Origin: an uncultured Planctomycetota bacterium
GTDB lineage: Bacteria > Planctomycetota > PLA2 > JAEUHO01
Direction: 5' to 3'
DNA: 64,000 nucleotides
NCBI GenBank assembly: GCA_963752285.1
Contig: CAVVXN010000005.1
Coordinates: forward strand, 288,001-352,000
Positions 13,230 to 47,917 of this stretch are shown here, piece after piece. Under the pieces are notes generated by a model. The model was not told the origin of the DNA. It searched no databases and worked only from the letters and a program-made list of their open reading frames with translations. How positions within the stretch are numbered: position 1 is the first letter of the stretch; every line of letters starts with the position of its first letter. A program made the position numbers and the translations under genes.

Positions 13230-14926
13230 CGGTGAGGGGCGGCGGCCGAGCCGGGTCGGAAAGCCCCGGCCGTGACCGCCTCGTCGCTCGCCGCGGTCTC
13301 TCTCCGTGGGCGTCACGCGAGAGAGCGTCGGCCGGCCGGGGGCACGGGCGGCCCCGCCGCCGACGAGGGTCTACCGGCCGCGTCACCCGGAGCGCACCGC
13401 CCTCTACCAGGTGCTCGAGGCACGCTTCGAGGACTACCGGCGGGCGTACCCCGACCGCTTCGAGCCCGAGGCGGGCCCTTGGCGGAAGGAGATCGAGGAG
13501 GCGGTCTACGCGTACCTGGACTGCGGCCGCCTTCACGGGGGCTTTGCCCGCATTAGGTGCCCGAGGTGCGGCGCGGAGCACCTGCTCGCCTTCTCGTGCC
13601 GGACGAGGAACCTGTGTCCGTCGTGCCCGTCGAAGCGCTCGTGGGTCTTCGCGGAGTGGCTGGGGCGAGAGGTGCTGCTGGAGGTCGCGCACCGGCACGT
13701 GGTGTTCACGGTGCCCAAGCGGCTCCGGGGCCTGGTCGCGCGAGACCGGGCGCTCCACGGGGTGATGGCGCGGGCCGCCTGGGAGGTGCTCCGCGAGAGC
13801 CTCTCCGAAGCCGCCTCCGAACGAGAGGGCGCTCCGGGGGCGGTGATCTCGCTCCAGACGTTCGGGTCGTTCGGCGCGAACTTCCATCCCCACCTGCACG
13901 CGATCGTGACGGAGGGGGTGTTCACGAAGGACGGCCGGTTCCATCCCGTGATCTGGCCGACGCCGGCGCGCCTGGAGATGCGGTTTCGCCTACGTTTCCT
14001 GGGGGCGCTGGTGGAGGGGGGGCGGCTGCGGGCCGAGACGCGGTCGCGGTTCCTCGCCTGGTCGAGGTCGGGGTTCTCGGTGGACGCGACGCACCGGGTG
14101 GCGGCCGGCGAACGGGAGCGGGCCGAGCGGCTGGCGCGCTACGCGACGCGGGTGGTGCTGGCGACGGGGAAGGTGAGGCGGCTCGAGGGGGGCCGGGTGC
14201 GGGTCGAGACCCCCCCCGACCCGTGGACGGGTCGGACGTGGCTCGAGCTGGACGAGCTCGAGCTCGTCCACGCAGTGTGCCAGCAGGTGCCGTCCCGGGG
14301 GCGGCACCTCGTCCACTACTACGGGGTGTACGCGAACCGGCTTCGCCGGGCGTTCCGGGCGGCGCGAGCGGCGCGGGCGGGGGAGGAGGCGCCGACGGGT
14401 GGGGGGGCAAAGGGCCGGACGCCGGTCAAGCGGGGTCCGGAGGAGCGGGCCCCGGAGGCGTCGTCCGGGCCGACGTCGAGAGCCGCGTCCCTCAAGCGAC
14501 AGGCGTGGGCGCGGCTCCTGAGGAAGGTGTTCGAGGTGGACCCGCTGCTCTGTCCGCGTTGCCAGGAGACGATGGAGAAAGTGGCGTTGATCCTCGACCC
14601 GAAGACGGTGGAGCGAATCCTCAGCCATCGGCGCGAGCGAGGGCTCGAGTCGGCGTTCGAGGGGCCGCCCGCGAGGGCGCCGCCGGCGGCGCAGGGCGAA
14701 CGAAGAGACTTCGGGAGGAGGAGGGGGGCCGTCGTGTAGAGGCGGGCGGGAGCGGTACGTCCCCGTTGGCCGCCCCGGGCCTTGCGAGAGGGACCCAGAG
14801 TGCCGCGAATCCGGGCATGGGCCCGTACGGCGCAGATCCCGAGCGCGAGGAGGTGCGAAGCGGTCGACACAACCCTTGCGCGACCACGCGACGCCGCCCA
14901 CGACGAGGATTCAATGTCCTATGCGT
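13230..14926 (+). mobile_element. Full-length ISCR-like element (copy 1); ori end ...GAGGATTCAATGTCCTATGCGT; left end not defined
   Basis: Right end defined by where the repeated copies diverge; resembles the ISCR oriIS-type ending TCCTAT-purine-C. Confidence 0.8.
13306..14739 (+). CDS. ISCR/IS91-family rolling-circle (HUH) transposase, full length
   Basis: Zn domain C-x2-C...FSCRTRNLCPSC, HRHVVFTVPKRLR, HUH motif HPHLH, SGFSV, single-Tyr RLARYATR, and C-terminal WARLLRKVFEVDPLLCPRC...ARAPP. Confidence 0.92.
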   Translation: MGVTRESVGRPGARAAPPPTRVYRPRHPERTALYQVLEARFEDYRRAYPDRFEPEAGPWRKEIEEAVYAYLDCGRLHGGFARIRCPRCGAEHLLAFSCRTRNLCPSCPSKRSWVFAEWLGREVLLEVAHRHVVFTVPKRLRGLVARDRALHGVMARAAWEVLRESLSEAASEREGAPGAVISLQTFGSFGANFHPHLHAIVTEGVFTKDGRFHPVIWPTPARLEMRFRLRFLGALVEGGRLRAETRSRFLAWSRSGFSVDATHRVAAGERERAERLARYATRVVLATGKVRRLEGGRVRVETPPDPWTGRTWLELDELELVHAVCQQVPSRGRHLVHYYGVYANRLRRAFRAARAARAGEEAPTGGGAKGRTPVKRGPEERAPEASSGPTSRAASLKRQAWARLLRKVFEVDPLLCPRCQETMEKVALILDPKTVERILSHRRERGLESAFEGPPARAPPAAQGERRDFGRRRGAVV

Positions 14927-15348
14927 CTGGGCGCGTGGAAGCCACCCCCGCCGCGCCATCCCCCCGCGAGAGGTCCGCCTCCCCGGCCCAAGCCGGTCCG
15001 CGCCGCTGAGATTCGAACGCCATGGACCCCCCCCTCCGGGATCGGTCGCTTCGCGGGACCGCCCCCGGCCGCCTCATTTCGGGTGGATCGGCGCGTGGAC
15101 CGGGCGCCCGGTCGCCCCCATTTCGCGGGGGGAGAAAGGGGTCCGCTCGGACGGATAACGAGACGCAATGCACCTCATCAGCGGATTTGATACGGGATTC
15201 GGACCCCCAGCGGGAAATCCCCCCATGGAAGTACGGGTCGGCTCCCCACCGGGTGGTGCGGGAACGGGGCTCGGTACTGGAGTTGGGCCTGGGTCGTGGC
15301 CTCGCGCGGCCATGACCCGGGTCGCCATGAGAAGGAGAGGAGTACACC

Positions 15349-18300
15349 GTGGCCAAGGTCGTCCGTGTGGCGGGTCGGGCTCTCTGGATCGTTCTGCCGC
15401 TGCTGGCCGTGGGGATCTTCCTGGCGTTCCCCCCGGGCACCGCCCGGGCGAGTTACACGAATCCGTACTGGTCGAGCTCCTCTCCCTCCCCCGAGTGCGG
15501 GTGCAGCGGGTGCGGCTGCGCCCGGCCGCCCGAGTGGTCGCCCGAGGGCGTGTCGTACCGAACGGGAGAGGCACGAATCGGCTTCTTCCTCTTCGACACG
15601 CCCGGGATGGTGGGCCGGCACGACTTCGCGCTCACCTGGCGATCCATGACCAGCGGGGCCACACAGTTCGGAAACGGGATGCTGTTCAACCTCGAGCGCA
15701 CACTCGAGATCACACTCGGGGAGACCATCGTCTATGACCGCTGGCCGAGCGGACGGATCGTCACGTGGTACCTGGACGCCGGCACCTACGTGACGTCGGA
15801 CTGCAGCGTTCACGACACCCTCGAGAAGAACGGCAGCGGGTACTTCGAGATCCACGGCAAGTACAAGGACGTGTGGACGTTCGACGCGAACGGGATGCCG
15901 AGCACCTACGCGGATCGAAACGGGAACGCGCTCACCTTCACCTACAGCACGTATCAACTGACCGGCATCACGGACGACCGGGGGAAGTCCTACACCTTCC
16001 ATCACGACGGCAGCGGGTTCGTCGACTACATCACCGACCCCACGAGCCGGACCTGGAACTTCTCGTACTCGTCTGGGAACCTCGTGGGCATCACCACGCC
16101 GCACACGCCCGACCAGACGAGTGGGATCACGACGACGATCTCCTACGACGGCTCGGACCGCATCGACGCGATCGAAGACGGGAACGAGAACACCGTCTAC
16201 GAGTACGCCTACGTCACGGGGACCGAGAAGATCGACCACGTCACGATCGACGGGGACGACCCGAGCTACGCCTACTACACCGGACGTACCGACGTGACCG
16301 ACCGGCTCGGGAACCTCTGGCGCTACTACTACTCGGGCGCCAACATCACGAAGACCTGCATGTACGTGGACTCGGAAGAGCAGTACGTCACGAACTACAC
16401 CTACAACGGCGACGACCTGATCACCGTCGTCTACCCCCGCGGGAACCGCCTGGACCTCACCTACGACGGGGACTCGAACATCACCGAGCGCCGCCGGAAG
16501 ACGACCGACACCGCGAGCACGAGCGGTACGGACATCGTGGAGAGCTACGCGTACAGCCACAACTTCCTGACCTCGTACACGGACGCCCTCGGAAACGAGA
16601 CCACGTACACGCGAGACACCCCGGGGAACCTGACGCGGATCGACTTCCCGGACGTCACGGACCCGTCCTCCCAGTCCGCCTACAAGACTTGGACGTACAA
16701 CGGCTACGGGCAGGTCACCGCGGCGACCGACGAGGAGGGGACGGAGGTCGACTACTCCTACTTCTCCTCAGGTGACTACGTCGGACTGCTCCACACCGTG
16801 GAGGTGGACCCGAGCGGATTGGACCTGACCACCACCTACGCCTATGACTCGTATCGAAACGTCTCCTCGGTCACCGACCCCAACGGGAACGCCACGACGA
16901 CCACCTGGGACGCGCTACGTCGAAGGACCGAGGTCGACGCGCCCTACCCGCTCTCCTACCAGACGAAGTACAAGTACGACGGGATGGGGAACCTCGTCCA
17001 GGCGGACGTCCAGAACGTCGACAAGGACGGGAACGTCAGCGGGTCGAACCCCTGGTTCACGACGACCTACACGTACACGGCCACGAACCACGTCGCGACG
17101 ATCACCGAGGAGATCGACGCGAGTACGACCCGCACGACCACCGTCGAGTACGACGCGAACGAGAACCGGATCCGCGTGACCAAGCCCGAGGGGAACAAGG
17201 AGAAGTGGGTCTACGACGAGCGAGACCTCGTCTACCAGCACATCCGAGGCGAGACCGACGAAGAGGCCTCGACGGAGACGTTCGCATACGACGACAACGG
17301 GAACCTCGTCACGAGGACCGACGGCCGCTCGCACAGCACGACCTACACGTACGACCTCTTCGACCGGCGGACCCGGACCACGAACGCCCTCTCGCACTAC
17401 GAGACGACCGACTACGACAAGGCCGGGCACGTCACGAAGATCGAGCGGCGGGACTCGGGGGACACCCTGCTCGAGCGCCGCGAGTTCGCCTACGACGAGC
17501 GGGGGCGGCTCTTCGAGGTGACCGACCTCTACAAGGACCCCGGGACGACCTACGACGACGCCGTGACCACGATCGAGCGGCGGAAGACCGGCCAGGTCCT
17601 GGTCGTGACGAACGCGAGGGGGAAGGACACGACCTACGACTTCGACGACGCCGGGCGGATGGTGTCGGTGACGGACGCCATGGGGAACGAGACCGCCTGG
17701 ACCCTGGACGACGCTGGGAACCGGACGGACTGGTCGGTCACGGAGATCGACGGCGAGTCGAGCGTGACGCACCAGTACGAGGCGACGTACGATGTGCTGA
17801 ACCGCATGGCCACCCGGACCGAGATCGACCGCCTGGACGGGGAGCACGAGCTCGACGACGACCTACGGGCGCGACAGCCGGTCGAACCTCGTGTGGATGG
17901 TGAACGCCGAGGGGAACCCGACGCGCTTCACCTTCGACGGCCTGGGCCGGATGACCAAGAAGGAGGTCGCGCTCTCCTACGGCGACCCGATCGAGACGTT
18001 CACGAGCGCGATCGTCACGCAGTGGGGGTTCGACGACAATGACCGGCTCGTGTCCTTCAAGGACGACGCGAGCCACGAGACGACCTGGACGTACGACGCG
18101 CTCGACCGCGCCGCGACGATGACCTACCCGGACTCGACCTACATCACGTACACGCACGACGCGACAGACGACGTGGTCGAGACGGTCGACGCGGCCGGGA
18201 ACGACATCGAGGACACGTTCGACAACCTGAACCGGATGACGGCTCGGAACATCACGCGGGCGGGCTCGTTCATCGGGACGACCTCGGAGTCCTACTCCTA

Positions 18301-20331
18301 CGACGCGTTGAATCGCCTGACGGAGGCCGAGAACAACGACTACACGGTGGACTTCACGTACGGGGTCCGGGGGCTCGACTCGACCGTCTACACGGAGGCC
18401 CAGGAGTACGCATCGGGGACGGCGTACACGAAGACCGTGACGAGCACGTACGACGCGGTCGGGAATCTGAAGTCGCTCGACCTACCCCTCCGGCCTCGCG
18501 CTTGCCGAGAGCTACAACGACGTCGGCGCCCTCTCCTCGATCTCGGACGGGACGAACACGATCGCCTCGTTCACCTACATCGGGACGCGGCCGAAGGTGA
18601 CGACGTTCCAGAACGGCACGACCCAGACGAACACGCTACGGCGGGTTCCGGGAGGAGGTCACGAGCATCGACCACGAGACGTCGAGCCCCTCGACGATCG
18701 TCAGGCTCGACTACGCCTACAACGACGTCCACGACCGGATCTACGAGCGGTACGGCAGCTCGGGCTCGTCCGGGGACGCCTTCGAGTACGACAAGGCGCG
18801 GCGTCTCACGGTCGCCTGGATGGGCTCGGCCTCGCCGGACAGCCCGAGCGGGGCGGCCTACACCAAGAAGATCGAGTACAACTACGACGACGACGGGAAC
18901 AGGACTTCCGTCGTGGTGACCCCGTACGGGCAGTCTCCGGCGACGACCAGCTACAGCACCAACACGCTGAACCAGTACACCGCCGTGGGTGGGGTCAGCC
19001 ACAGCTGGGACGGCAACGGAAACCTCTCGGACGACGGGACCTTGACGTACGAGTACAACTACCGTAATGAGATCTGCCGGGTCAAGAACGGCGGCACGAC
19101 GGTGGCGACCTACAAGTACGACGCGCTGGGCCGACGGGTGGAGAAGGCCGTGACGGGCGGCGTCACCGAGCGCTACGTCTACGCGGGCGTCGAGACGATC
19201 GCGACCTACGACGGCTCGAACACCTGGAAGCAGGACTTCGTGTTCGGCCAGGGGATCGACAACGTCCTGATGCTCGAGCAGGCGGACGTGCTCGACTTCG
19301 ACGCGGACCAGAACACGAGCGAGACGACGCGGTCCTTCTACCACAAGAACGCGCTCGGCTCCGTGATGGCGATCACGGACATGAGCGAGGCGACGGCGGT
19401 GTCGTACCGCTACGATCCGTACGGGACCGTCACGATCACGCGGGGCGGGCAGACGCAGTCGACCGATCCACTCGGGCAGCACTGGGGCTATGCGGGTCGT
19501 TACTACGATGAAGAAACCGGCGGGGTCTATTCCCGGGCGCGAGAATATGGACCTAACCTAGGGCGCTTTGGGCAACGAGACCCGCTGAGGGCAGCAAGCC
19601 TCAAGAATTCGTATTGCTACGGAAGCAATTCGCCAGTATCTCGGTGCGACCCAACCGGGCTGGTCGACGGCCCTGACCACAGGCCAATGCCAGGAACGGA
19701 CCCCGGCAACCCGCCCAGCATACCTCCGTCCGATCCAACGATACCCAACGATCCCGCGGGTTTGCCCGATACCCATTTCCGCGCGCGAAACGATCCAAGA
19801 GTCAAGGTCGGAGGGGCCAAGATCACGGACTTGCTGGGTAACGAGGGCTTCTGTCTCGCGGCGCTTGGGCCGGCCGGTCGTCGCCTAGCATGGGTGCAAT
19901 ACTACAAGTGGGACCTTCTATGGGAGATCATTGGGGAGAACGCGACATCTGTTCCGACGGGCATGCCGGGGCCGCAGAATGATCCTCCGGGGAATTCGGG
20001 CCTCTACCCCAAGCAGAATGGAGCCGGCACACACGCAGTTGGTTTGGGTGACGCGCCGGGCTGGAACATCGGAGGCGAGCCGGCGGCTTGGGCTGCAATG
20101 GTGGCGCATCCGGACATCTTCCTCGAAACAGTGTTCCGGGAGGCAGGCATTTCCCCGGCTCCACCAAGCGGTGTGATTTATGCCGTTTCGACTCTGGACC
20201 TGCGATCCTTTCTGATCGACCTTCAGACCGGACGCGTCCTCGAGAGGGTGCGCACAGTAAAGACGTACATATACAATCTCTTCGGGGATCCTCAATTGAC
20301 CCAGCACGTCCAGGGTCCGGCGCAGTTCTAG
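15349..20331 (+). CDS. Rhs/YD-repeat polymorphic toxin with N-terminal signal peptide; about 3 frameshifts (~17855, ~18485, ~18635)
   Basis: YD repeats across several consecutive frames; Rhs core (HKNALGSV, YDPYG, GRYYDEETG, REYGPNLGRFGQRDP); SPVSRCDPTGL cleavage motif, then a lower-GC C-terminal domain. Confidence 0.9.
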
Positions 20332-21497: not shown

Positions 21498-21508
21498 GCA
21501 AGTGTAAC

Positions 21509-21690
21509 GTATCCGTCCCGTCAACCCAGGTAGCGGCACATTGGCCCGCGCCGGACGTCAGCCCGTATCGGGTGCAGCCCGACCGCGGGCCTCCCGCCAT
21601 CCCCGCTGCGTGAGCTTGTGCATGCGCTCCGCGGGGTTGTCGCGGAGCCACCGGGCGGAGACGTGCGCCCTCACGTAGAGGCCCATGAAA
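21509..21690 (-). mobile_element. IS66 right-end remnant (TIR plus tnpC C-terminus)
   Basis: GTATCCGTCCCGTCAACCCAGGTAG matches the right TIR of the IS66 ending at 40422; encodes ...PAERMHKLTQRGWREARGRAAPDTG*. Confidence 0.85.
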
Positions 21691-22721
21691 TGACCTGGCC
21701 GACGCCGGCGCGCCTGGAGATGCGGTTTCGCCGACGTTTCCTGGGGGCGCTGGTGGAGGGGGGGCGGCTGCGGGCCGAGACGCGGGCGCGGTTCCTCGCC
21801 TGGTCGAGGTCGGGGTTCTCGGTGGACGCGACGCACCGGGTGGCGGCCGGCGAACGGGAGCGGGCCGAGCGGCTGGCGCGCTACGCGACGCGGGTGGTGC
21901 TGGCGACGGGGAAGGTGAGGCGGCTCGAGGGGGGCCGGGTGCGGGTCGAGACCCCCCCCGACCCGTGGACGGGTCGGACGTGGCTCGAGCTGGACGAGCT
22001 CGAGCTCGTCCACGCAGTGTGCCAGCAGGTGCCGTCCCGGGGGCGGCACCTCGTCCACTACTACGGGGTGTACGCGAACCGGCTTCGCCGGGCGTTCCGG
22101 GCGGCGCGAGCGGCGCGAGCGGCGCGGGCGGGGGAGGAGGCGCCGACGGGTGGGGGGGCAGAGGGCCGGACGCCGGTCAAGCGGGGTCCGGAGGAGCGGG
22201 CCCCGGAGGCGTCGTCCGGGCCGACGTCGAGAGCCGCGTCCCTCAAGCGACAGGCGTGGGCGCGGCTCCTGAGGAAGGTGTTCGAGGTGGACCCGCTGCT
22301 CTGTCCGCGTTGCCAGGAGACGATGGAGATCGTGGCGTGGATCCTCGACCCGAAGACGGTGGACCGAATCCTCAGCCATCGGCGCGAGCGAGGGCTCGAG
22401 TCGGCGTTCGAGGGGCCGCCCGCGAGGGCGCCGCCGGCGGCGTAGGGCGAACGAAGAGACTTCGGGAGGAGGAGGGGGGCCGTCGGGAGAGGCCGTCGTG
22501 AGAGGCGGGCGGGAGCGGTACGTCCCCGCTGGACGCCCCGGGCCTTGCGAGAGGGACGCAGAGTGCCGAGAATCCGGGCATGGGCCCGTACGGCGCAGAT
22601 CCCGAGCGCGAGGAGGTGCGAAGCGGTCGACACAACCCTTGCGCGACCACGCGACGCCGCCCACGACGAGGATTCAATGTCCTATGCGTCGCCCACGACG
22701 AGGATTCAATGTCCAATGCGT
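21691..22721 (+). mobile_element. 5'-truncated ISCR-like copy 2 with tandemly duplicated ori terminus
   Basis: Near-identical to ~13950-14926; terminal 32 bp repeated at 22690-22721. Confidence 0.92.
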
Positions 22722-25069: not shown

Positions 25070-26287
25070 CAAGCGGCTCCGGGGCCTGGTCGCGCGAGAC
25101 CGGGCGCTCCACGGGGTGATGGCGCGGGCCGCCTGGGAGGTGCTCCGCGAGAGCCTGTCCGAAGCCGCCTCTGAACGAGAGGGCGCTCCGGGGGCGGTGA
25201 TCTCGCTCCAGACGTTCGGGTCGTTCGGCGCGAACTTCCATCCCCACCTGCACGCGATCGTGACGGAGGGGGTGTTCACGAAGGACGGCCGGTTCCATCC
25301 CGTGATCTGGCCGACGCCGGCGCGCCTGGAGATGCGGTTTCGCCGACGTTTCCTGGGGGCGCTGGTGGAGGCGGGGCGGCTGCGGGCCGAGACGCGGGCG
25401 CGGTTCCTCGCCTGGTCGAGGTCGGGGTTCTCGGTGGACGCGACGCACCGGGTGGCGGCCGGCGAACGGGAGCGGGCCGAGCGGCTGGCGCGCTACGCGA
25501 CGCGGGTGGTGCTGGCGACGGGGAAGGTGAGGCGGCTCGAGGGGGGCCGGGTGCGGGTCGAGACCCCCCCCGACCCGTGGACGGGTCGGACGTGGCTCGA
25601 GCTGGACGAGCTCGAGCTCGTCCACGCAGTGTGCCAGCAGGTGCCGTCCCGGGGGCGGCACCTCGTCCACTACTACGGGGTGTACGCGAACCGGCTTCGC
25701 CGGGCGTTCCGGGCGGCGCGAGCGGCGCGAGGGCGCGGGCGGGGGAGGAGGCGCCGACGGGTGGGGGGGCAGAGGGCCGGACGCCGGTCAAGCGGGGTCC
25801 GGAGGAGCGGGCCCCGGAGGCGTCGTCCGGGCCGACGTCGAGAGCCGCGTCCCTCAAGCGACAGGCGTGGGCGCGGCTCCTGAGGAAGGTGTTCGAGGTG
25901 GACCCGCTGCTCTGTCCGCGTTGCCAGGAGACGATGGAGATCGTGGCGTGGATCCTCGACCCGAAGACGGTGGACCGAATCCTCAGCCATCGGCGCGAGC
26001 GAGGGCTCGAGTCGGCGTTCGAGGGGCCGCCCGCGAGGGCGCCGCCGGCGGCGTAGGTCGAACGAAGAGACTTCGGGAGGAGGAGGGGGGCCGTCGTGAG
26101 AGGCGGGCGGGAGCGGTACGTCCCCGTTGGCCGCCCCGGGCCTTGCGAGAGGGACGCAGAGTGCCGAGAATCCGGGCATGGGCCCGTACGGCGCAGATCC
26201 CGAGCGCGAGGAGGTGCGAAGCGGTCGACACAACCCTTGCGCGACCACGCGACGCCGCCCACGACGAGGATTCAATGTCCTATGCGT
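25070..26287 (+). mobile_element. 5'-truncated ISCR-like copy 3
   Basis: Near-identical to ~13716-14926; ends TCCTATGCGT. Confidence 0.92.
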
Positions 26288-36143: not shown

Positions 36144-36441
36144 CATCGGCGCGAGCGAGGGCTCGAGTCGGCGTTCGAGGGGCCGCCCGCGAGGGCGCCG
36201 CCGGCGGCGTAGGGCGAACGAAGAGACTTCGGGAGGAGGAGAGGGGCCGTCGTGTGGAGGCGGGCGGGAGCGGTACGTCCCCGTTGGCCGCCCCGGGCCT
36301 TGCGAGAGGGACCCAGAGTGCCGAGAATCCGGGCATGGGCCCGTACGGCGCAGATCCCGAGCGCGAGGAGGTGCGAAGCGGTCGACACAACCCTTGCGCG
36401 ACCACGCGACGCCGCCCACGACGAGGATTCAATGTCCTACG
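36144..36441 (+). mobile_element. 5'-truncated ISCR-like copy 5 (shortest; end variant TCCTACGC)
   Basis: Near-identical to ~14626-14921. Confidence 0.9.
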
Positions 36442-36949
36442 CCTAGCCGAAGCCGAATTCCACAGCGCAGCGCAGAACATGTGGGATCTCATGGGCGGCC
36501 AAGGCGCTGTGCCGCGGGGCGGACCGATCTCGGACGCAGACCTAGTCCGGCTGGCCCGCCTGGATGCAATGGCGTTCGGGAATTGGATTGCGAACGCTGC
36601 GTCTCTCCGGGAGAACGACCGGTACAAGGTCGTGCCCCAGCCAGATCCCTACGATCGGAGGGCGGTAGGTGGGTACGACCCGGAAACGGGCGATATTGGC
36701 TTCAAGACCTCCTACATGGACAATAACGCCGAGAGATTCAAGAACGGTGACTGGCTCGGGGAGGCTCGGACAGTGGCAACTCTTTTGCATGAAGTCCGAC
36801 ACGCTGAGCAGGGGCCGACCGAGTCACGTGACCATCCGCCCGATCCAGGTAGAGGAGACGTCCCTGCGGGAACGTCGGAATGACAACGTGTCGATCGGCA
36901 CGACGCCAAGGACATCGTGGACTTTGCGAAACGGGCATGGGGAAGGTGA
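36442..36949 (+). pseudogene. Orphan HExxH metallopeptidase toxin-tip fragment fused to the ori
   Basis: GGYDPETGDI...ATLLHEVRHAEQ; reading frame is open from the ori junction; lower GC. Confidence 0.6.
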
Positions 36950-36959
36950 GAGGCAGGTT

Positions 36960-37616
36960 ATGTGCCTTCACACGCGCAACGAACAGCGGCACTCAAGTCC
37001 GACACGAGCGGCTGGCGGCGGCGGGCGGCTGCATCGGCGTTGGAGCCGGTGCGTAGCAATTCTCGCGATCCTGCTCCTGTTCGCCCCAGCTGTATTGGCA
37101 CTTTCCAGTTGTGGCAGATGCCATGAGACATGTGAGGCGGATGGGCGCGGACGTGTGGAAATCGGCTCTGGAGTGATGCTCGTCCGTCTGCGCATACACC
37201 TGATCGACACGGCGGGGCAGCCGCTGGCGGGAGCGCGCGTCGTGGCATCCCCGTCGGCCCATGCAACTCAGGAGATTGTCGAGGGAATCCGGAAGTCCAT
37301 TGAGTTGTCCCGAGCCGAGGGGAGCATTGCCGGAGAAAGTTGTGCCATCGGAACGACGGATGCGGGTGGAACGGTCCGTCTGGAGTACACGCTCCCGGGG
37401 GCCCCGGATGGGGGGACGGAATGGGTCACTGAGGGCAGATTCCCCTTTGCGGACTATGTTCGGGTGGACTCGGTGCAGTGCGGGACGTTCTTTCGGGAGT
37501 TGAATTGCCCAAGAAACGTGCACTTTGACCTGAACCCGGGGCCGATCGGGCGTGGCGACCTTGGGGAGATCGAGCGGGTTGCCGAGGCCGACTTCGAGAT
37601 CCGGTGTGACAAGTAG
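36960..37616 (+). CDS. Exported or lipoprotein-like hypothetical protein (candidate immunity)
   Basis: Hydrophobic segment plus LSSC; directly follows the toxin fragment. Confidence 0.5.
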   Translation: MCLHTRNEQRHSSPTRAAGGGGRLHRRWSRCVAILAILLLFAPAVLALSSCGRCHETCEADGRGRVEIGSGVMLVRLRIHLIDTAGQPLAGARVVASPSAHATQEIVEGIRKSIELSRAEGSIAGESCAIGTTDAGGTVRLEYTLPGAPDGGTEWVTEGRFPFADYVRVDSVQCGTFFRELNCPRNVHFDLNPGPIGRGDLGEIERVAEADFEIRCDK

Positions 37617-37924: not shown

Positions 37925-38057
37925 CCCCTCCGGCCACACCGGCATGACTGGCGACAGGAGCGGAGCATGCAGACCCACGACGAGACAGGGTATGCGTCCC
38001 GTCAACCCATGTTTCCCGATGGCTGCGTGCGTGCGAACCTCCCGGCGCTGAAGGGAG

Positions 38058-38411
38058 GTGCCGATGCGGGCGAGAGGCGGCGGCCAGGCCATCCGACGGT
38101 TGAGGGGAGCGGCTCGGGAGCGGGCCGTGCGGGAGGTGCTCTCGCGCTGGGCCGAGGCCGGTAGCACCAAAGTGGAGTTCTGCCGGCGTGAGGGGATCAC
38201 GAGGGTGACCCTGTCGCGCTGGCTGGCCGAGTTCCCGTCGGGCCGAACCGAGGTGGGTGACGCGCGCCCGCGGTTCGTCGAAGCGATGCTCGGCGCGGTC
38301 GTGCGGGAGTCGTACGAGGTCGTGCTGGCCACGGGGGCGCGCGTTCTCGTGCCGCAGGGGTTCGACGAGCAGGACCTCGCGCGGCTGCTCCGGGTGGTGT
38401 CGGCGTGCTGA
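38058..38411 (+). CDS. tnpA: IS66 accessory protein TnpA
   Basis: HTH (EFCRREGI...LSRW), PRFVE; first ORF of the element. Confidence 0.85.
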   Translation: MPMRARGGGQAIRRLRGAARERAVREVLSRWAEAGSTKVEFCRREGITRVTLSRWLAEFPSGRTEVGDARPRFVEAMLGAVVRESYEVVLATGARVLVPQGFDEQDLARLLRVVSAC

Positions 38412-38758
38412 GCTTCCCTCCGGCGGTGCGGATCTACCTGGCGGCCGGGGCGACCGACATGCGAAAGAGCTTCGACGGCCTGGCCGCGCTGACGGAACAA
38501 GCGCTGGAACTCGACCCCTTGTCGGGTCACCTCTTCGTGTTCTGCAACCGTCGCCGCGACCGGATCAAGATCTTGTACTGGGATCGAGCCGGCTTTTGGT
38601 GCCTGGCGAAGCGCCTCGAGGAGGGGACGTTCGCCTGGCCCGAGGACCCCGGCAGCTCGCGCATCGAGTCTTCGCCTCGGGAGCTCCTGTGCGTGCTCGA
38701 GGGCATCGACCTGCGGGACGCCCGCCTTCGGAAGCGGATGAACCGATTGCCGTCGTGA
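38405..38758 (+). CDS. tnpB: IS66 accessory protein TnpB
   Basis: TDMRKSFDGL, LFVFCNRRRDRIKILYWD and KRLEEGTF. Confidence 0.95.
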   Translation: MLSFPPAVRIYLAAGATDMRKSFDGLAALTEQALELDPLSGHLFVFCNRRRDRIKILYWDRAGFWCLAKRLEEGTFAWPEDPGSSRIESSPRELLCVLEGIDLRDARLRKRMNRLPS

Positions 38759-38777
38759 GGCGTCAATCGAAGAAGAA

Positions 38778-40373
38778 TTGCTTCGCATGCTCTCTCGCAT
38801 CGAGGACAATGCGCCCGTGACGCACGCGATCGATCTTCCCCCCGACCTCGAGAGCTCGCACGCGTTGATCCGTCAGCTCCATGCGCGCCTGCACGAGATG
38901 GAGGGGGAGATCGTGGACCTCCAGCACCGCCTGGACGTGATGGCCCGGCGGATGTTCGGCCGCCGGAGCGAACAGCTGGACCCGGCGCAGCTGGAGCTCG
39001 CGTTCGCCGCCCTCCAGGCCGAGGAGTCCACGACCGCCACCGAGGAGGTCGAGACGGACGCGGCCGACGAGGTCGAGCGCGAGCGGCCGCGGCGCAAGGG
39101 CCACGGCCGCCGGCCCCTGTCGAGGGATCTGCCGCGGGAGGTGCGGCGCGTCGAGCCCGAGAGCACGACGTGCCCCGGCTGCGGGAAGGCGATGGTCGAG
39201 ATCGGGGAGGAGCGAAGCGAGCAGCTCGACTACGTCCCGGCGGTGGTCCGCGTGATCGAGACCGTGCGGCCGACCTACGCCTGCCCGACCTGCAAGGACC
39301 ACGTGAGCGGGGCGCCACCGGCGACCTCGCCGATCGCCCGCGGGAAGGCCACGGCGGCCCTCTTGGCGCACGTGGCGGTGTCCAAGTACGCCGACCACCA
39401 GCCGCTCAACCGCCAGGTCGGGATCCTGGCGCGGGTGGGCGCGGATCTGACCAAGCAGACGCTCTGCGGCTGGATCCGGCAGACGAGCGAGATCCTGGCC
39501 CCGGTCGAGACGGCGCACTGGGAGTCGATCCTCTCCTCGCACGTGCTCCAGGCCGACGAGACGCCGGTGAAGATGCTCGACCCGCCGAAGAAGGAGTGCA
39601 GCCGGGCGTACTTCTGGGCGTATGTCGGCGACCGCGACGAGGTGGCGTTCGACTTCTCGACCGGACGCGGGAGCGAGGCGCCGCTTCGGGCGCTCGCGGG
39701 CTTCCGCGGGGCGTACCTGCAGTCCGACGGCTACTCGGGCTACGGCCCGGTGGAGCGTGCGAACCGTGCCATGAAACGCACGGGGTGCATGGCCCACATG
39801 CGGCGTGGCTTCTACGACGCCCGGGGCCTGGACCCCGCGCGTTGCCTCCTGGTGCTCGCGCTCGTGCGCCAGCTCTACGACGTAGAGGAGGACGCCTGGA
39901 GCGCGACGGAGAGCCGGGAGGAGCTCGTGGCGCTCCGCTACGTGCTCCGCCAGGATCGAAGCGTCGCGATCATGAAGACTCTGCACGCGCACCTGGAGCG
40001 ATGGAAGACCGAGGTCCTTCCCAAGAGCCCGGTCGGGAAGGCGACCGGCTATGCGCTCAACCAATGGACCGAGCTCACGCGCTTTCTCGACGATGGAGCG
40101 CTCGAGCTGGACAACAATTCCGCGGAGCGCGCGCTGCGGACCGTGGCGGTGGGCCGCTCGAACTCGACGTTTTGCGGGAGCGAGAGCGGCGGTGCCTGGG
40201 CGGCTACGTTCTACGGGTTGCTCGGCACCTGCCGACTGCAGAAGATCGACCCGGCGGCGTGGCTGACGGACGTTCTCAACCGTGTCGCCCAGCACCCCGC
40301 GGACCGGATGCACGAGCTCACGCCGCGGGGATGGCGGGAGATCCGGGACCGGGCTGCGCCCGACACGGGCTGA
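38778..40373 (+). CDS. tnpC: IS66 DDE transposase TnpC
   Basis: FGRRSEQ, SKYADHQPL, ADET, SDGYSGY, CMAHMRR and DNNSAERALR. Confidence 0.95.
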   Translation: MLRMLSRIEDNAPVTHAIDLPPDLESSHALIRQLHARLHEMEGEIVDLQHRLDVMARRMFGRRSEQLDPAQLELAFAALQAEESTTATEEVETDAADEVERERPRRKGHGRRPLSRDLPREVRRVEPESTTCPGCGKAMVEIGEERSEQLDYVPAVVRVIETVRPTYACPTCKDHVSGAPPATSPIARGKATAALLAHVAVSKYADHQPLNRQVGILARVGADLTKQTLCGWIRQTSEILAPVETAHWESILSSHVLQADETPVKMLDPPKKECSRAYFWAYVGDRDEVAFDFSTGRGSEAPLRALAGFRGAYLQSDGYSGYGPVERANRAMKRTGCMAHMRRGFYDARGLDPARCLLVLALVRQLYDVEEDAWSATESREELVALRYVLRQDRSVAIMKTLHAHLERWKTEVLPKSPVGKATGYALNQWTELTRFLDDGALELDNNSAERALRTVAVGRSNSTFCGSESGGAWAATFYGLLGTCRLQKIDPAAWLTDVLNRVAQHPADRMHELTPRGWREIRDRAAPDTG

Positions 40374-40430
40374 CGTCCGGCGCAGGCCAACATGCCGCTA
40401 CCTGGGTTGACCGGACGGATACGAGACAGG

Positions 40431-40984
40431 TGCGACCAGCGGTCTGAAATGTCACCACTTTCCTCGGTCTGGAGGTGCGCAGCGGTCCGCAGTGGGCGTG
40501 GGTCGACCGGCCGCGACCGGAAGAGGTGCGGGCAGGGAGTGGCTGCGTGGGCCGCGGTGCGCCCGGGAGGAGGTTCGCTACGCCGGCGGGGCGGCGGTCT
40601 CGGGAGGCAGTCGGTAGGAACTTCCCTCGATCGTGACGATCTCGCTGTGATGGGCGATGCGGTTGATCACTGCATCCGCGACCGTGGCGTCGTGAAACAC
40701 CGACGCCCATTCCTTGAAGGGGCGGTTCGTCGTCAGGATCACCGAGCCTCGCTCGTAGCGGCCGGAGATGACCTGGAAGAGGAGATCCGCTCCGTGACGG
40801 TCGATGGGCAGGTAGCCGAGCTCATCGAGGCAGAGAACGTCGGGGGGCAGGTAGGAACGTAGTCGTTTGAGGAACGTGCCGTCGCTCTGGGCGGCGTGCA
40901 GGTGGTTCACCACGTTGATCGCCGTGGTGAAGAGCACGCGGTGTCCCCTCTGGCAGGCGGCGTAGCAGAGCGCAGAGGCGAGGT
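40431..40984 (-). mobile_element. istB: IS21 right-end remnant with istB 3' half (stop at 40578)
   Basis: LCLDELGYLP, RYERGSVILTTN and RIAHHSEIVTIEGSSYR; TIR TGCGACCAGCGGTCTGAAATGTCACCACTTT. Confidence 0.88.
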
Positions 40985-41630
40985 GGGTCGAGACCCCCCC
41001 GACCCGTGGACGGGTCGGACGTGGCTCGAGCTGGACGAGGTCGAGCCCGTCGACGCAGTGTGCCAGCAGGTGCCGTCCCGGGGGCGGCACCTCGTCCACT
41101 ACTACGGGGTGTACGCGAACCGGCTTCGCCGGGCGTTCCGGGCGGCGCGAGGGCCCCGGAGGCGTCGTCCGGGCCGACGTCGAGAGCCGCGTCCCTCAAG
41201 CGACAGGCGTGGGCGCGGCTCCTGAGGAAGGTGTTCGAGGTGGACCCGCTGCTCTGTCCGCGTTGCCAGGAGACGATGGAGATCGTGGCGTTGATCCTCG
41301 ACCCGAAGACGGTGGACCGAATCCTCAGCCATCGGCGCGAGCGAGGGCTCGAGTCGGCGTTCGAGGGGCCGCCCGCGAGGGCGCCGCCGGCGGCGTAGGG
41401 CGAACGAAGAGACTTCGGGAGGAGGAGGGCGGCCGTCGTGTGGAGGCGGGCGGGAGCGGTACGTCCCCGTTGGCCGCCCCGGGCCTTGCAAGAGGGACCC
41501 AGAGTGCCGAGAATCCGGGCATGGGCCCGTACGGCGCAGATCCCGAGCGCGAGGAGGTGCGAAGCGGTCGACACAACCCTTGCGCGACCACGCGATGCCG
41601 CCCACGACGAGGATTCAATGTCCTATGCGT
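40985..41630 (+). mobile_element. 5'-truncated ISCR-like copy 6 (internal ~80-bp deletion near 41150)
   Basis: Matches ~14201-14926; ends TCCTATGCGT. Confidence 0.92.
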
Positions 41631-42101: not shown

Positions 42102-45100
42102 TCACTTCTCGCGGGCGGCGAGGCGGGCACGCCACGTGTCGGCGTCGTCCTTCCGGTCGAGCGCGAAGTAGCAGTCCACGAGCGCCTGGATCGTCTCGGT
42201 GATCCTCGGCTTGGCCAGCGGGGGCATCGAGGACTCCTTGGCGAGCAGGCCTTCGGCCGCGGCGCGCAGGATCGGCTCCGCCTCCTTCGGCCGCTTCTCT
42301 TCGAGCAGCGCGCGACCGACGCACGCGCGTGCGGAGGGAAGGGCCCACGAGTCCGGCAGGAGCTTCTCGCGGATCGCGAGGGCGGCGCGGGCGGCGGCCT
42401 CCGCGTCTTCGGCTTCGCCGGTCCGGAGGAGGAACTGCGCGAGCATCAGCTGCAGCGAGGCGAAGCTCGATCTGCTCCTGCGGCGCGTCGCCCCGGGGGT
42501 GGCCGATCTCCTTTCGGACGATCTCGATCGCCTTCTTCTCGCGCCCTTCGTCGCGAGGACGGCGCCGAGGTACGCATCGAGCCAGTGGTGGACGACGGGG
42601 TCCTCGCCCCTGAGCGTCACGGCCGTCTCCAGGTGGGGGAGCGCCTCCTTCGGACGGTTCAGCCCGAGCAGCATGGTGCCGAGCTCCGCGCGGGCCCTGA
42701 GCATGAGGAGATCGTCGGGCGGGGCCACCTCGATCCAGGTCTCGACGTACTTCTCGAGGCGGGAGGCCGCCTCCTCGAGGTTTCCCTTCTGGGCGTAGTA
42801 CTCGGCGAGGATCTCCGCCATGTGGAGGGTGGTCGTGTCGCGCCAGCCGTGCTCCTTCACCTGGTCCTCGAGCCCCGCCGTCCGGAACCGGATCGCGTCG
42901 TCCCAGCGGTGGAGGTCCTGGAAGCAGCCCGCGAGGAGGTTGGCGGCCCTCGTGGTCCGGTACTCCGGCCGGTCGGGCGCGGCGTCGTAGCGCCGGGCGG
43001 CCTCGCGGTCGTGCCCGAGCGCATCGGTCATGAGGCCGGCGTTTCGCTCGTCGATGGCCAGGTTCAGGAGCGTGAACACGAGGGCCGGCGCGTTCTCGGT
43101 TCGCCGCTCGCGGTCCTTCAAAGCTCTCGAGGATCTCGGCCGCCCGGTCGTACTGCTTCCGCTCGAAGTACTTCACGCCGACCCCCTCGAATCGGTTCAG
43201 CGCGTCGCCGAACAGCTTCGCGTCCTCCTGCTGCTCGATTTCGATCCGGCGTGAAGCGGGCGGCCTCCTCGAGCCGGCCGAGATGGAGGAAGCAGATGGC
43301 CAGGCTGTCTCGCCGCCACGAGCGTCCCGTAGGCGGGGTCGTCGGACCGGGCCGCGTAGCCCTTGGCGGCCTGCTCGAAGAAGGGCGTGCGCCTCTTCCT
43401 TCTGACCGATGTGCTCGAGGCACATGGCCAGGCTGCTCGTCGTGAAGACGGTGTCCGGGGCCGTAGGGCCCTCGTGCGCCGTGTCCAGGGCGAGGAGCTG
43501 GCGCAGGACCTTCGCGGCCTCCGCGTGCTGGTCGCGGCGGATGAGCGCCGACGCGAGGAGGAACCCGGCCTCGTGGGCCCGCTCTGCAGTGGACTCGCCG
43601 GGGGTTGGCGGGAGGGCGTCGAGTACCCGGCGGAGGCACGGGATCGCCTCGTCGCCCTTGCCGAGGTTGAGGTAGCACAGGGCGAGCTGTGACTGGACGT
43701 CGGGCTCGTCGTATCCGGCGTGCTCGGCGTCGGCGTCGTACCGCTTCAGCGCCTCCTCTTACGAGCGCCGCGCGTCGTCGGGACGACCCGCCGCCCGACG
43801 GCAGGCGGCGATGTCGCAGAGCGCGCGGAACACCTGCACGCTGTTCTCGCCGCGCCGTTCCGTGGCCAGCTTGCGGTACTCCTCGAAGTACTGGACGGCC
43901 TGGTCGAAGCGGCCCGCGTCCTGGTACGCCGTGCCGGCGACGTCCAGCACGTCCATCACGTCGGAGCCCTTGCCGCCCGTCGCCTTCCGCAGGCGGTCGA
44001 GCACGGCGTCGACCGGGGAGAAGGCTCGCGACCTGTCCGCGCGGCATGAGGATCTGCGTCAGGGTGTGGACGGCCTGGCTCACGGCCGAGACGGGGGGCC
44101 GCGGGGTTCTCGAGCACTTCGGTGAGGAGAGGGAGCGCCTCGTTCGTGCGGCCGACGAAGAAGTAGTTCGTCCCGAGGTTGCAGCGCGCGGTCTCGGTCG
44201 TCGAGGCGTCGCTTCCGAGCGAGGCCTCGGCGAGCTTCACGGCCTCCTCGAGCACGCTGACCGCCTGGTCGTACTGGCCGTTCGACCAGAACGAGGCGCC
44301 CAGGTTGTTCATCGCCGAGATCGTGCGTGCGTCGCCCGGGCCGTACGTCGCCTTGAAGGGCGCTCTTACTCGGTCGTGACGAGCGCGTGCGCCCCGGCGG
44401 CGTCCCCCGTCTCCCGGCGCAGCAGGGCCAGGGTGTGCATGACCCGCTTCGTGATCGGGTGGCCCGGGTCGAAGAGGGCCAGCGCCTCGCGGAAGGCCTC
44501 TTCTGAGAGCTTTCGCGCGTCGTTCGGCCGATGGTCCACCCGGAGCACGTTCGCCAACACGTCGAGCGCGTGGAGCGTGGCCGGATTCCGGACCCCGTAG
44601 CGGGCGCGGAGGACCTTGGCGACCTGCTCCAGGAGCGGCAGGGCCTCGGGGCACGCGGTCGAGCGCGGCGTAGCACATCGCGAGAGCGCTCTGGACCCCG
44701 AGCGTCCCGTCGCCCTCCGGGCCCGGGTCCTTCCGGAACGCCGCGAGGGCCTCTTCCAGGTAGGGGAGGGCCTCGGCGGGGCGGCCCGCGCTTTGGAGCA
44801 CCGTGCCGAGGTGCGCGCGGCAGCGGACGCGGACCGGATCCGACGCCGAGCGCGCGTCGGTGCAGGTCCACCGCCTCGCGACACACCTCGAGCGCCCGCG
44901 GGAGCTGCTCGGCCGTGAGAAGCACGCCTCCGAGCTCGCTGAGGGCGTCGAGGGTCTCGTCCGCGTCGGGGCCGAAGTGCTTCCGGTAGCGGTCGACGGC
45001 GGCTTCGAGGAGGGGGACCCGCGCCCGGTCGCCCAAGCGAGGCGAGCGCACTCCCCAGGCGGATCTGCATGCCGCCCGCCACGACGGGGTCCTCGAACGC

Positions 45101-46750
45101 GTCGCCTTCGAGCTTCTTCGCCGTCGCCTCGAGCTTCGTCGCGAGGACCTGCTGCAGCGGGACCTCGTCCGACGCGATCTCCTCGGGCGTCACGGACTGG
45201 AAGATCGACCCCAGGAGGTCGTTCGCCTGCTGCACCTGCGCGAGGCGGCGGTTGGCCTTCTCCCCGTTCGCGAGCCGTTCCCCCTCGGCGCGCTTCGCCT
45301 CGGCGGCCCGCGCCTCGTCGGCGATCCGGCGCTGCTCGTTCGCCTGCACGAGGCTCCAGAGCGTCCCGACGACGCCCACGAGCAGGACGACGGCGATCGC
45401 CAGCGTCGCGCGTCGCCGGCGGCGCTCCGCGTCGGCGCGGAGACGCGCCTGCTCGGCCGCGGCCTCCTCGCGCTCGGCGCGGGCCTGCTCCTGCGCCGCG
45501 CGGGCGCGCGACTGCGCCTCGCGGGCCTGGGCCTCGGCGGCCTCCGTGCGCGCGTGCGCGGCGTCGAGCAGGGCGCGTCGGGCGCGCTCCTCGACGGCCG
45601 ACAGGTAGCTCGTCACCCGCTCGGCGACCTCGCGCGCGGAAGCGAGACGCGCATCGCGGTCCGCGCTCAGGCACGACGAGACGAGGGCGACGAGGTCCTC
45701 GTCGGCTTCCGCGCCGGCGAGACGGTCCTGCCAGTCGCCCGGGTCGGCCCGGAGCGCCTTCACGAGGCGTTCCATGGGCGTGCCCCCTGGGGCGGGCTGG
45801 CCCGTCAGGATCTCGAGGAGGATCGCGCCGAGCGCGAACACGTCGCTCCGCGTGTCGATCTCGCCGAGCGCCCCGCGCGCCTGTTCCGGCGGCATGTAGC
45901 CGGGCGTCCCCATCGCCGAGCCGAGCGTCGAGCGGAGGTCGGGACGGTCCACCTCCTCGGACGCGGGCTCCACGGGGACGTCGGCGGGGAGGGGCTCCTC
46001 GGGCGTGTCGTCGCCGCCGAGCACCTTGCCCATGCCCCAGTCCACGACCTGGACCTCGCCGAAGGCGCCGACCATCACGTTGGCGGGCTTCAGGTCGCGG
46101 TGGATCACGCCGCGGGCGTGTGCATAGGCGAGGGTCTGCGCGATCTGCTCGAAGATCCCGAGGAAGCGGCGTCGGTCGGCCTTGACGTCGTCGCGCGCCT
46201 CGAGGAGCTCGGCGAGGGACTTCCCCCGGATGAGCTTCATCGCGAAGAACGGCCGTCCCTCCTGGAGCCCGAGGTCGTAGACGGGCACCACGCCAGGGTG
46301 CTGGAGCTGGCCACCGATCTGCGCCTCTTCGACGAAGCGCCGCACGATCTCGGGTCGGCGCTGGTACTCGTCGCGGAGGACCTTGATCGCCACCTCGCGA
46401 CCGAGGTCCACGTCGCGCGCCTGGAGCACCAGGCCCACGCCCCCGCGGCCGAGCTCGCCGAGGAGCCGGTACTTCCCCTGGAACGGCGTCTCTTCGCCTG
46501 ACGGCGCGGCGGACGTCGCGCCTCCTCGTCGCTCGTCGGGCGGAGCGTCACCCGGACGCGGCTCCCGAGCTCGCGCTCGATCCTCGGAAGCGTCGTGTCG
46601 GCGCTCCCGGGTTCGCCGGCGCCCGGCGGGGGGGCCGGCGGCTCGCCCCCGCTCGCGCTCGGAGGCGGAGCGGACGGTCGGTCCGGACGCGTCTCTCGGT
46701 CGTCGTCGCTGACCCTGCCCCCCCGTGACGTCTGCCTCGCACCGACGGCG
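42102..46750 (-). pseudogene. Ser/Thr protein kinase with TM helix and TPR repeats; many frameshifts
   Basis: ELGRGGVG, VAIK, HRDLKPAN, DWG, GTPGYMPPEQ and SDVFALG; kinesin-light-chain-type TPRs broken over many frames. Confidence 0.88.
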
Positions 46751-47061
46751 GGCCGCCGGCGCGCCCCCCGGAGCCTCGCGACGCGCGAATTCCCGGAGGC
46801 GGCGCATTCTAGCCACCGCAGGGCGCGGCCCGGTCCCCACGGCGAGGTTTCCCCGCCAGGGGGATCGGTGCGGGCGCACACACGGACGGTCCTCGTGGCG
46901 GGACCTAAGCGCGTAGCAGGTCACGGGCGTTCGGATACCCTCCTCGCCCCGCGGATCGGCGGCTCCCCGTGGAGGCGAGCCGTGCGCCGGCGGGCTGGGC
47001 GGGGGATCTGGGCGTGTGTCGTGGGAGCGGCGGTCGACGCGCTTCCCGAGGAGGTCATTCG

Positions 47062-47569
47062 ATGCATGCTTCGAAGATCTGGATCGTGGTGGCGGTGGCG
47101 GTGGCCGCCGGGTTCTTCGGCGGTCGTGCGTGGACGGGAGAGGACGAGCAGCCCTCGGGCGGCATGGATCCGTCGCTCATGCAGCCGGGCGAGGAACACA
47201 AGGCGATGGCCGACGTCGTCGGCACCTGGGATCTCGTCAGCGAGATGACGGCGCCGGGCGGCCAGACGATGTCGACGAAGGGGACGGCGACGTTCGAGAT
47301 GATCCTCGGCGGTCGCTATCTCGTCCAGAAGGTGAAGGCCGATCCCATGATGCCCGGCGGCGGCCCGTTCGAGGGTCTGGGCATCGAGGGCTACGACCGC
47401 GTGGCCAAGCAGCACTTCTCGACGTGGTTCGACAACATGGGCACCGGACACATGGACAGCACCGGCCAGCGGTCGGAGGACGGCAAGGTCCTCCACGATG
47501 ACGGGCGAGGGCGACTTCGGCGAGGGACCGATGAAGTACCGCGAGGTCATGACGAAGACGGGCCCCGAC
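47062..47569 (+). pseudogene. DUF1579-like exported protein, 3'-truncated by ISCR copy 7
   Basis: PGEEHK...VGTW, ILGGRYL, FEGLGIEGYD and WFDNMGTG; GAGGAGG RBS. Confidence 0.75.
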
Positions 47570-47917
47570 TCGTGGCGTTGATCCTCGACCCGAAGACGGT
47601 GGACCGAATCCTCAGCCATCGGCGCGAGCGAGGGCTCGAGTCGGCGTTCGAGGGGCCGCCCGCGAGGGCGCCGCCGGCGGCGTAGGGCGAACGAAGAGAC
47701 TTCGGGAGGAGGAGGGGGGCCGTCGTGTGGAGGCGGGCGGGAGCGGTACGTCCCCGTTGGCCGCCCCGGGCCTTGCGAGAGGGACCCAGAGTGCCGAGAA
47801 TCCGGGCATGGGCCCGTACGGCGCAGATCCCGAGCGCGAGGAGGTGCGAAGCGGTCGACACAACCCTTGCGCGACCACGCGACGCCGCCCACGACGAGGA
47901 TTCAATGTCCTATGCGT
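47570..47917 (+). mobile_element. 5'-truncated ISCR-like copy 7
   Basis: Matches ~14579-14926; ends TCCTATGCGT. Confidence 0.92.

Follow-up and report, generated by a model that had tools for sequence, protein, structure and literature searches.

The 64,000-nucleotide stretch of DNA analysed here (G000:C5:288001-352000, hereafter the window; G000 is the source genome, that of an uncultured soil bacterium, and C5 one of its contigs) carries an intact insertion sequence (IS) of the IS91 family, followed on the same strand by six truncated copies that share its 3' end. On balance, and with moderate confidence, we read this locus as an ISCR-like cluster of IS91-family rolling-circle IS lying in a 68-kb variable island, in which activity is anchored at the origin end of the element and the pile-up of copies and foreign DNA is a by-product. 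The source assembly is of metagenome type and comprises 4.64 Mb in 5 contigs, with 73% GC and 89% completeness. Coordinates given without a contig refer to the window.

The intact element at the head of the array spans 13271-14927 on the + strand (1657 bp), because homology with copies on contig C2 of the source genome and in two related genomes, G001 (same genus) and G009 (another genus of the same family), begins at 13271, where the sequence opens with GTGACCGCC..., and because its 3' end is shared. A preliminary description of this DNA had placed the left end at 13230, which has to be corrected accordingly. The origin end reads ...TCCTATGCGT(C) and lies at position 14927; it is unrelated to the left end, so that the element has no terminal inverted repeats. 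Its transposase gene (13306-14739, +) encodes 477 amino acids and is separated by a 188-bp tail, counted from the stop codon, from the origin end. The protein contains the HUH motif HPHLH (residues 194-198) and the two-tyrosine motif YYGVY (residues 339-343), and it matches Y2_Tnp (73 bits) and the N-terminal zinc-binding domain Zn_Tnp_IS91 (66 bits) of Pfam, in agreement with the rolling-circle HUH transposase recognised earlier. The score against the NCBIfam model for IS91 (NF033538) lies above the cut-off (165 versus 125 bits), and that against ISCR clade Ia (NF052416) lies far below it (150.8 versus 925 bits); ISCR membership is judged on this clade, the one ISCR clade modelled in NCBIfam. 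The nearest annotated relatives in the plasmid collection share about 30-34% protein identity with the transposase. By its protein, the repeated unit is an IS91-family rolling-circle element, and the repeats are its oriIS-type origin ends. The head transposase may carry a 15-residue read-through tail, because codon 463 (base 14692) reads CAG (Gln) in the head copy and TAG in truncated copies 2, 4, 5 and 7, and because homology to the relatives in G001 and G009 likewise stops at about residue 463.

Self-BLAST of positions 13000-15400 against the window reveals the six 5'-truncated copies downstream of the intact element, all on the + strand. Copies 2 (21691-22690), 3 (25070-26288) and 4 (29904-30504) correspond to positions 13949-14927, 13716-14927 and 14327-14927 of the head copy, used as master, with identities of 96.6%, 98.1% and 98.3%, respectively. 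Copy 5 (36144-36441) begins at master position 14626, its bases 36144-36439 aligning with 14626-14921 at 98.6% identity, while copy 6 (40985-41630) consists of master 14201-14372 plus 14447-14926, with an internal gap of about 74 nt, and copy 7 (47572-47917) matches 14581-14926 at 98.8% identity. Matches of 95-100% identity over 0.3-1.2 kb are not chance. The six truncated copies display six different 5' cut points and one common 3' end at master position 14921-14927, where the terminus reads ...CCTATGCGT or, in a longer form, ...GGATTCAATGTCCTATGCGT; the terminus of copy 5, TCCTACGCCT, is read as two substitutions in the last ten bases. Successive copies are separated by blocks of 6763, 2348, 3615, 5639, 4545 and 5941 bp, and no target duplications were found among the flanks of all seven copies in the window. 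The anatomy laid out in the preliminary description is confirmed by these results: a head transposase with six co-oriented + strand copies of about 0.3-1.2 kb, different 5' cuts and a shared 3' terminus, blocks of 2-7 kb (2.3-6.8 kb as measured here) and an absence of target duplications. Five of its six copy starts also hold, copy 7 starting at 47572 instead of 47570.

The two ends of the element differ in how often they survive. Further copies, which were also to be looked for genome-wide, amount to only three traces in the source genome by whole-genome BLAST: an origin-bearing truncated copy at C5:911488-912372 (-) that is split by a 677-bp insert, an internal fragment at C5:907638-907806 and a left-end (5') fragment of 81% identity on contig C2. 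Seven truncated pieces in this genome keep the origin end and one keeps the left end, and about 14 versus 1 were counted in G009. Under a 50:50 expectation the one-sided binomial tails are 0.035 and 0.0005, respectively, the pieces not being independent events. The 677-bp insert of the eighth origin-bearing copy (G000:C5:911590-912268) is non-coding and has about 10 nt of the copy repeated on either side; BLAST finds no second copy of it in the source genome.

The same architecture recurs in related and in distant records. In G009, an assembly of 10 contigs, several arrays are built from a relative of the element with 60% identity. Contig C8 has a full copy with four + strand copies behind it, whose cuts fall at positions 270, 452, 1146 and 1246 of their own element and all of which end in ...CCTATGCAT (longer form ...AATGCCTATGCAT), and more co-oriented clusters lie on contigs C7, C9 and C5. 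Altogether about 18 pieces in this genome possess the origin end, 3-4 of them at full length, and one clear piece has the left end only. Two regions of its contig C8, 277759-282000 (L011 15759-20000) and 2142-6397, share three mobile pieces in differing relative orientations, namely a group II intron 3' part, an IS4-like DDE element and an IS21 element. G001 harbours two degraded + strand fragments of the element in the interval after sufS. Similarly, in the 41 kb examined of plasmid pIAE1 of Trichlorobacter lovleyi (NZ_CP058410.1; L036, 221316-262494), all six copies are co-oriented: four are full, one is 5'-cut and one internally deleted. The cut copies stop at the same 3' coordinate, beside qacEdelta1-sul1 (two segments), and the blocks of 2-9 kb carry housekeeping-type genes (shc, cbiB, nadD, gmk, trigger factor); the plasmid transposase is 34% identical to that of the window. 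A protein search of genome contigs yielded three loci, one of them in a metagenome-assembled genome of the same genus, and no new arrays.

Three types of junction provide further insight into how the copies arose. First, a sufS-like fragment (30505-30786, +) starts at the first base after origin end 4 and encodes residues 217-310, with 82% amino acid and 91% nucleotide identity to the resident sufS. A simple-insertion test for the missing part was negative, the first 216 codons of this sufS-like gene not being in the window. Second, the terminal segment is repeated exactly behind the origin end, and this in three sequences unrelated to one another: at origin end 2 (35 nt; 22687-22721, +), in the metagenome locus L024 (15 nt) and in G011:C778 (14 nt). 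L024 was the only related-looking one of 10 loci detected when metagenome contigs were scanned for the 18-nt terminus, the other 9 being chance matches in unrelated DNA. The corresponding 'double terminus' pattern gave 2 forward matches against 3 in the reversed control over 29 genomes, a count that by itself is not above chance; the two forward matches were read individually. Third, in a contig of public run X1 the 30 nt directly behind 26287 are missing, and origin end 3 continues with the block sequence beyond them. This is weak evidence because it is one contig at depth 4. The public runs consist of short Logan contigs, the best run containing a fraction of 0.13 of the sampled words, and joints were listed with sides of 21-24 nt. 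Taken together, the sufS-like piece, the terminal repeats and the X1 joint point to end-anchored activity.

These observations can be accommodated by a mechanism modelled on IS91 and IS801 biology. IS91-family elements are described as starting at oriIS, downstream of the gene, and running to terIS; termination fails in 1-14% of cases, and upstream DNA is then carried along (PMC13181058). As outlined in the same source, IS91 moves via an origin-to-terminus single-strand circle, and 1-10% of its events are one-ended (PMC13181058). For IS801, early termination is reported to have given right-end derivatives of 229, 360 and 679 nt in 26% of captured insertions (PMC3189936). A precise origin end, variable 5' ends and an excess of origin-bearing fragments therefore follow from the start-at-origin polarity of IS91-family transposition. 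From the observed anatomy, end asymmetry, recurrence and junction types we infer an order of events and enzyme steps as follows. The transposase would nick at the origin end (...CCTATGCGT) and copying would run back through the element, such that the origin end would always be precise and the other end would depend on the point of stopping and rejoining. Early stops would give rise to 5'-truncated, origin-bearing copies, from 1.2 kb down to 'stutters' of 14-35 nt, and late stops would take upstream flank along. The sufS-like piece at origin end 4 is what read-through and rejoining would be expected to leave, because sufS lies directly upstream of the head copy; its 91% nucleotide identity suggests that the event is older or that the piece stems from a relative. 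Rejoining of the products would take place at resident origin ends of the same strand or close to them, which would create the head-to-tail pile-up, each origin end being joined to whatever 3' end is available after copying or strand exchange of variable length. Genes interrupted at the first base behind an end would result from further origin-anchored rearrangements.

A number of results weigh against this origin-anchored account. The truncated copies share bases that the head lacks at 14579, 14580, 14613 and 14806; they also depart from it at 14692 in every case (copies 2-7) and at 14410 in the three copies that cover this base (2-4). The head in its present form is therefore not the source of these copies, and recent Campbell-type recombination into it is unlikely; a source copy with these variant bases is absent from the assembly. 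No common tetranucleotide follows the origin end, as judged from eight such ends in the source genome and five in G009; the four bases behind the seven ends of the window are CTGG, AAGC, CCGC, CGTC, AGCC, GTGC and GGGG. The six 5' cut points likewise have no common motif, so that no pseudo-terminus could be demonstrated. Small imperfect hairpins can be drawn at both element ends, and in DNA folds of both their energies lie within the range of shuffled sequences (z-scores of -0.2 to -1.2), folding being no stabler than in these. Four of the six truncated copies in the window, and also the one at C5:911 kb, have a fragment of another IS as their left neighbour. Neither an empty site nor a second copy of any block was found in the genomes searched, and the order of the array across the repeats is known from the assembly alone. 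As a candidate rule for pseudo-termini, the cut points of copy 2 (TGACC), copy 7 (GTGGC) and copy 3 (CAAG) were compared with the true left end (GTGAC) and turned out to be inconsistent.

The DNA between the copies is heterogeneous. Block 1 begins with about 400 nt of non-coding sequence, followed by an Rhs/YD-repeat toxin gene (15349-20331, +) in three overlapping frames, with an Rhs core domain and then a C-terminal tip (Pfam RHS_repeat; NCBIfam YD_repeat and Rhs_assc_core). The Rhs frame change at 17856 is possibly an assembly error because a contig of run X1 is 1 nt shorter at this point. Some of the 'frameshifts' of the window may be assembly errors; the short X1 contigs, otherwise identical, differ by single-base indels at 17856 and 24804. 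Just left of copy 2, a fragment resembling the end of an IS66 copy (21508-21637) is 88% identical to 40294-40423 in reverse orientation. The unknown frames of blocks 2 and 3 match no Pfam or NCBIfam family; block 3 also includes a 3'-cut HNH gene (26620-26949, -). Behind the sufS-like piece, block 4 encodes a CarboxypepD_reg-repeat protein (Pfam; 30798-33488, -) and a large protein of no assigned family (33498-35516, -), and an IS21 istB fragment (35771-35975, +; profile positions 71-138 of 238) lies to the left of copy 5.

Block 5 opens with an N-terminally cut toxin tip of the Rhs type (36442-36883, +) that starts inside its HExxH C-terminal domain. The cut thus falls within the toxin domain and not at the Rhs core: in the paralogue at C1:49570-48568, the Rhs core motif lies about 125 residues upstream of where the window piece starts. 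A search with the three Rhs frames (tblastn) found no Rhs fragments in the window besides this tip and the main gene. An overlapping frame (36669-37616, +), 55% identical to the downstream neighbour of that paralogue (C1:48846-47890), may be the immunity gene of the HExxH tip, and as an orphan it could still benefit its host. Rhs loci with orphan toxin-immunity modules are characterised by a main rhs gene with C-terminal tips and immunity genes behind it in the same orientation; one such tip, with its possible immunity frame, is seen here. It is followed by an IS66-family element with three genes (37988-40428, +; Pfam HTH_Tnp_1, TnpB_IS66 and DDE_Tnp_IS66), copies of which occur on contigs C2 and C3, and by a second IS21 istB fragment (40607-40988, -; profile positions 105-232 of 238) that abuts copy 6. 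Block 6 contains TPR proteins and a Ser/Thr kinase with a TPR tail (42102-47176, -), with paralogues further along the island, and a DUF1579 gene (46909-47571, +) that the 5' edge of copy 7 cuts about 28 codons before its end; in a simple-insertion test, the missing 28 codons were found nowhere in the window. An HNH endonuclease gene of a multi-copy family (47918-48214, -) has its 3' end cut exactly at origin end 7. Both HNH copies of the window are 3'-cut, and the small family has about nine further matching places in the source genome, among them C5 2.156-2.184 Mb, the best five of which are 85-90% identical. Fragments of IS21, IS66 and IS3 are part of the inter-copy DNA. Overall, this DNA would best be described as a patchwork of older island sequence (an Rhs locus with an orphan tip, kinases, other IS) and co-mobilised scraps, and thus as a by-product rather than an ordered store.

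The island that houses the array has a conserved left border, formed by a family 2B encapsulin shell gene (9430-10920, +; NCBIfam encap_f2b, 622 bits) and the long cysteine desulfurase gene sufS (10907-13198, +; Pfam Aminotran_5), syntenic with contig C10 of G001 through the end of sufS. The shell gene has a cNMP-binding-like insert and lies directly upstream of the desulfurase, the pair being conserved in G001; the 763-residue desulfurase has a long N-terminal region of about 420 residues rich in proline and alanine. The variable island measures 68 kb in the source genome and 22 kb in G001, because synteny stops at sufS and restarts at C5:369511. No tRNA was found at the island border. The island reaches past the end of the window and stays IS-rich beyond copy 7, with an IS110-family transposase gene at 54568-55617; a gene family without family match is represented at 60186-61745 and has about 12 matching places of at least 1 kb in G001. 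The cumulative GC skew of contig C5 peaks near 820 kb, and both IS91 clusters, at 301-336 kb (+) and 907-912 kb (-), have their transposase sense on the G-rich (leading) strand. As there are just two of them, a replication-linked orientation on this contig is no more than a hint.

Among the alternatives, the one that fares best holds that the locus is a true capture platform, in which units of cargo, truncated copy and origin end are excised as circles between two origin cleavage sites and re-inserted at a resident origin end, by origin-by-origin exchange or homologous recombination, so that the array grows like an integron with exchangeable cassettes. We consider this possible, though rather doubtful. 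The short terminal repeats exactly behind the origin end show that this point can receive DNA, but the 14-nt repeat cannot have been a circle. The intact copy is the leftmost one both in the window and on contig C8 of G009, where identity is 99% among the three proximal copies and about 93-94% for the two distal ones, and truncation extent rises along the arrays (permutation p = 0.035 for the seven copies of the window, 0.008 for G009 C8 and 0.042 for G009 C7). However, the gradient is not significant for the six truncated copies of the window alone (p = 0.14), and the copies on G009 C9 are not ordered. Recombination should also have given the 3' part of the head the incoming variants, whereas the head keeps its own bases throughout 14410-14806.

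Cargo begins at the first bases after three of the seven window ends, and a group II intron piece (3' part) starts within 10 nt of origin end 2 of G009. The mid-gene starts at the origin end claimed in the preliminary description hold for these three (the sufS-like piece, the HExxH tip and HNH) and fail for block 1, with its Rhs gene about 400 nt after the end; blocks 2, 3 and 6 do not allow a judgement. On the other hand, no block occurs twice: none was found when the whole island was compared with its own genome or block 1 of G009 with G009, and block 6 matched only kinase paralogues in 29 genomes of the family. Moreover, because most cargo is broken, the idea of a stockpile of toxin, immunity and surface modules is not supported. 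What stands of the proposed integron-like array is that origin ends are co-oriented and clustered, with several junctions that cut genes; what lacks support is the organised platform storing working modules, the blocks consisting largely of broken genes and IS debris.

A related idea, which we put forward only tentatively and regard as improbable as it stands, is that the origin end is also the preferred receiving site. The HUH transposase would then act like a site-specific recombinase, origin by origin, inserting and perhaps excising units of DNA, truncated copy and origin end behind a resident end, which would build age-ordered arrays, an integrase-free counterpart of the integron. If this were true, the terminal stutters, the 30-nt difference at origin end 3 and the rising truncation would be the footprints of origin-by-origin insertion.

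Ordinary decay offers an explanation without any process specific to rolling-circle elements: several full copies would have been inserted or duplicated, and unrelated deletions together with IS21, IS66 and IS3 would later have taken their 5' parts. Some truncations may indeed come from unrelated IS-driven deletions, because fragments of other IS are the left neighbours of four of the six truncated window copies and of the one at C5:911 kb, and in Pseudomonas syringae the IS801 fragments are reported to reflect mostly reorganisation and not one-ended transposition (PMC3189936). As a full account, however, decay is unlikely. Random deletions predict equal numbers of left-end and origin-end fragments, in contrast to the 7 versus 1 and about 14 versus 1 (G009) counted above; the IS21 junctions fall inside istB and not at IS21 termini; and the precise terminal repeats and the junction of origin end 4 with the sufS-like piece are left unexplained.

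That strain variants sharing an IS were chained through the repeat into a false array is very improbable, even though the assembly is of metagenome type with contig ends in similar Rhs and IS regions and the locus is covered by low-depth short contigs only, because the cargo-to-copy junction and the base differences are particular to each truncated copy, which means that every junction exists in a real molecule, because error-free contigs of the soil runs X1 and X2 cover blocks 1-4 at similar low depth, one of them spanning origin end 3, and because the pattern recurs in G009 and in a closed plasmid record.

As a biological entity the locus is best seen as ordinary mobile-DNA debris and neither as a new system nor as a gene-capture machine. 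It is notable for the number of its independent junctions and for its recurrence in an uncultured lineage. ISCR elements are regarded as major vehicles of resistance genes, and most of what is known of their arrays comes from clinical plasmids. In the present case, this architecture is found on the chromosome of a soil bacterium that is uncultured, with many independent cut points and junction types. We know of no description of ISCR elements in this bacterial lineage. According to a statement in a 2018 paper, no ISCR element had been shown to transpose (PMC6218425). In this context, natural junctions such as the stutters, the captured upstream flank and the strain difference at an end could reveal the rules of starting, stopping and rejoining, and one intact transposase with seven ends offers a harmless system for bench tests of those rules.

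Compared with known systems, the architecture itself is the known ISCR-type one. Toleman et al. reportedly described arrays of ISCR elements in 2006. ISCR1 is described as having a 232-bp origin-containing tail after the gene, with freely variable DNA downstream (PMC6218425), and intact and partial co-oriented copies bracketing foreign genes are documented in ISCR1 and ISCR2 contexts (PMC6218425, PMC7722449). The window resembles these elements in its IS91-related transposase gene followed by an origin tail of about 0.2 kb (here 188 bp, counted from the stop codon), in the highly variable DNA right after the end and in terminus-less copies that bracket foreign blocks. It differs in that its transposase, with an N-terminal zinc-binding domain, does not belong to the tested ISCR clade, in that the window has no integron and no resistance gene, and in that the array is chromosomal in an uncultured high-GC soil bacterium, with seven ends and six different cut points at one locus.

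With IS91, IS801 and IS1294 the element shares an HUH and two-tyrosine transposase with a zinc domain, distinct ends and the absence of target duplications, and for these IS 5'-truncated right-end derivatives and co-mobilised upstream flank have been shown experimentally. They are stated to need a tetranucleotide such as CTTG or GTTC at the origin end (PMC13181058), whereas the window has no tetranucleotide of the CTTG/GTTC/GTCC type there and none at the cut points; in lacking a common tetranucleotide beside the end it is like ISCR1. Plasmid pIAE1 is similar in its co-oriented full, cut and internally deleted copies with blocks of 2-9 kb, but is plasmid-borne with copies beside qacEdelta1-sul1. 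Integrons also form arrays of units on the same strand, but the window lacks their compact single-gene cassettes, and a scan of 88 frames in 10.7-52.8 kb revealed no tyrosine-recombinase integrase, attC sites not having been searched. Helitrons likewise capture flanking DNA through imprecise rolling-circle termination and have a Rep joined to a helicase (RepHel), but the 477-residue transposase is devoid of a helicase domain, Zn_Tnp_IS91 and Y2_Tnp being the only domains found. The element thus belongs to the IS91 family by its protein and is ISCR-like by its architecture, and it is neither an integron nor a Helitron.

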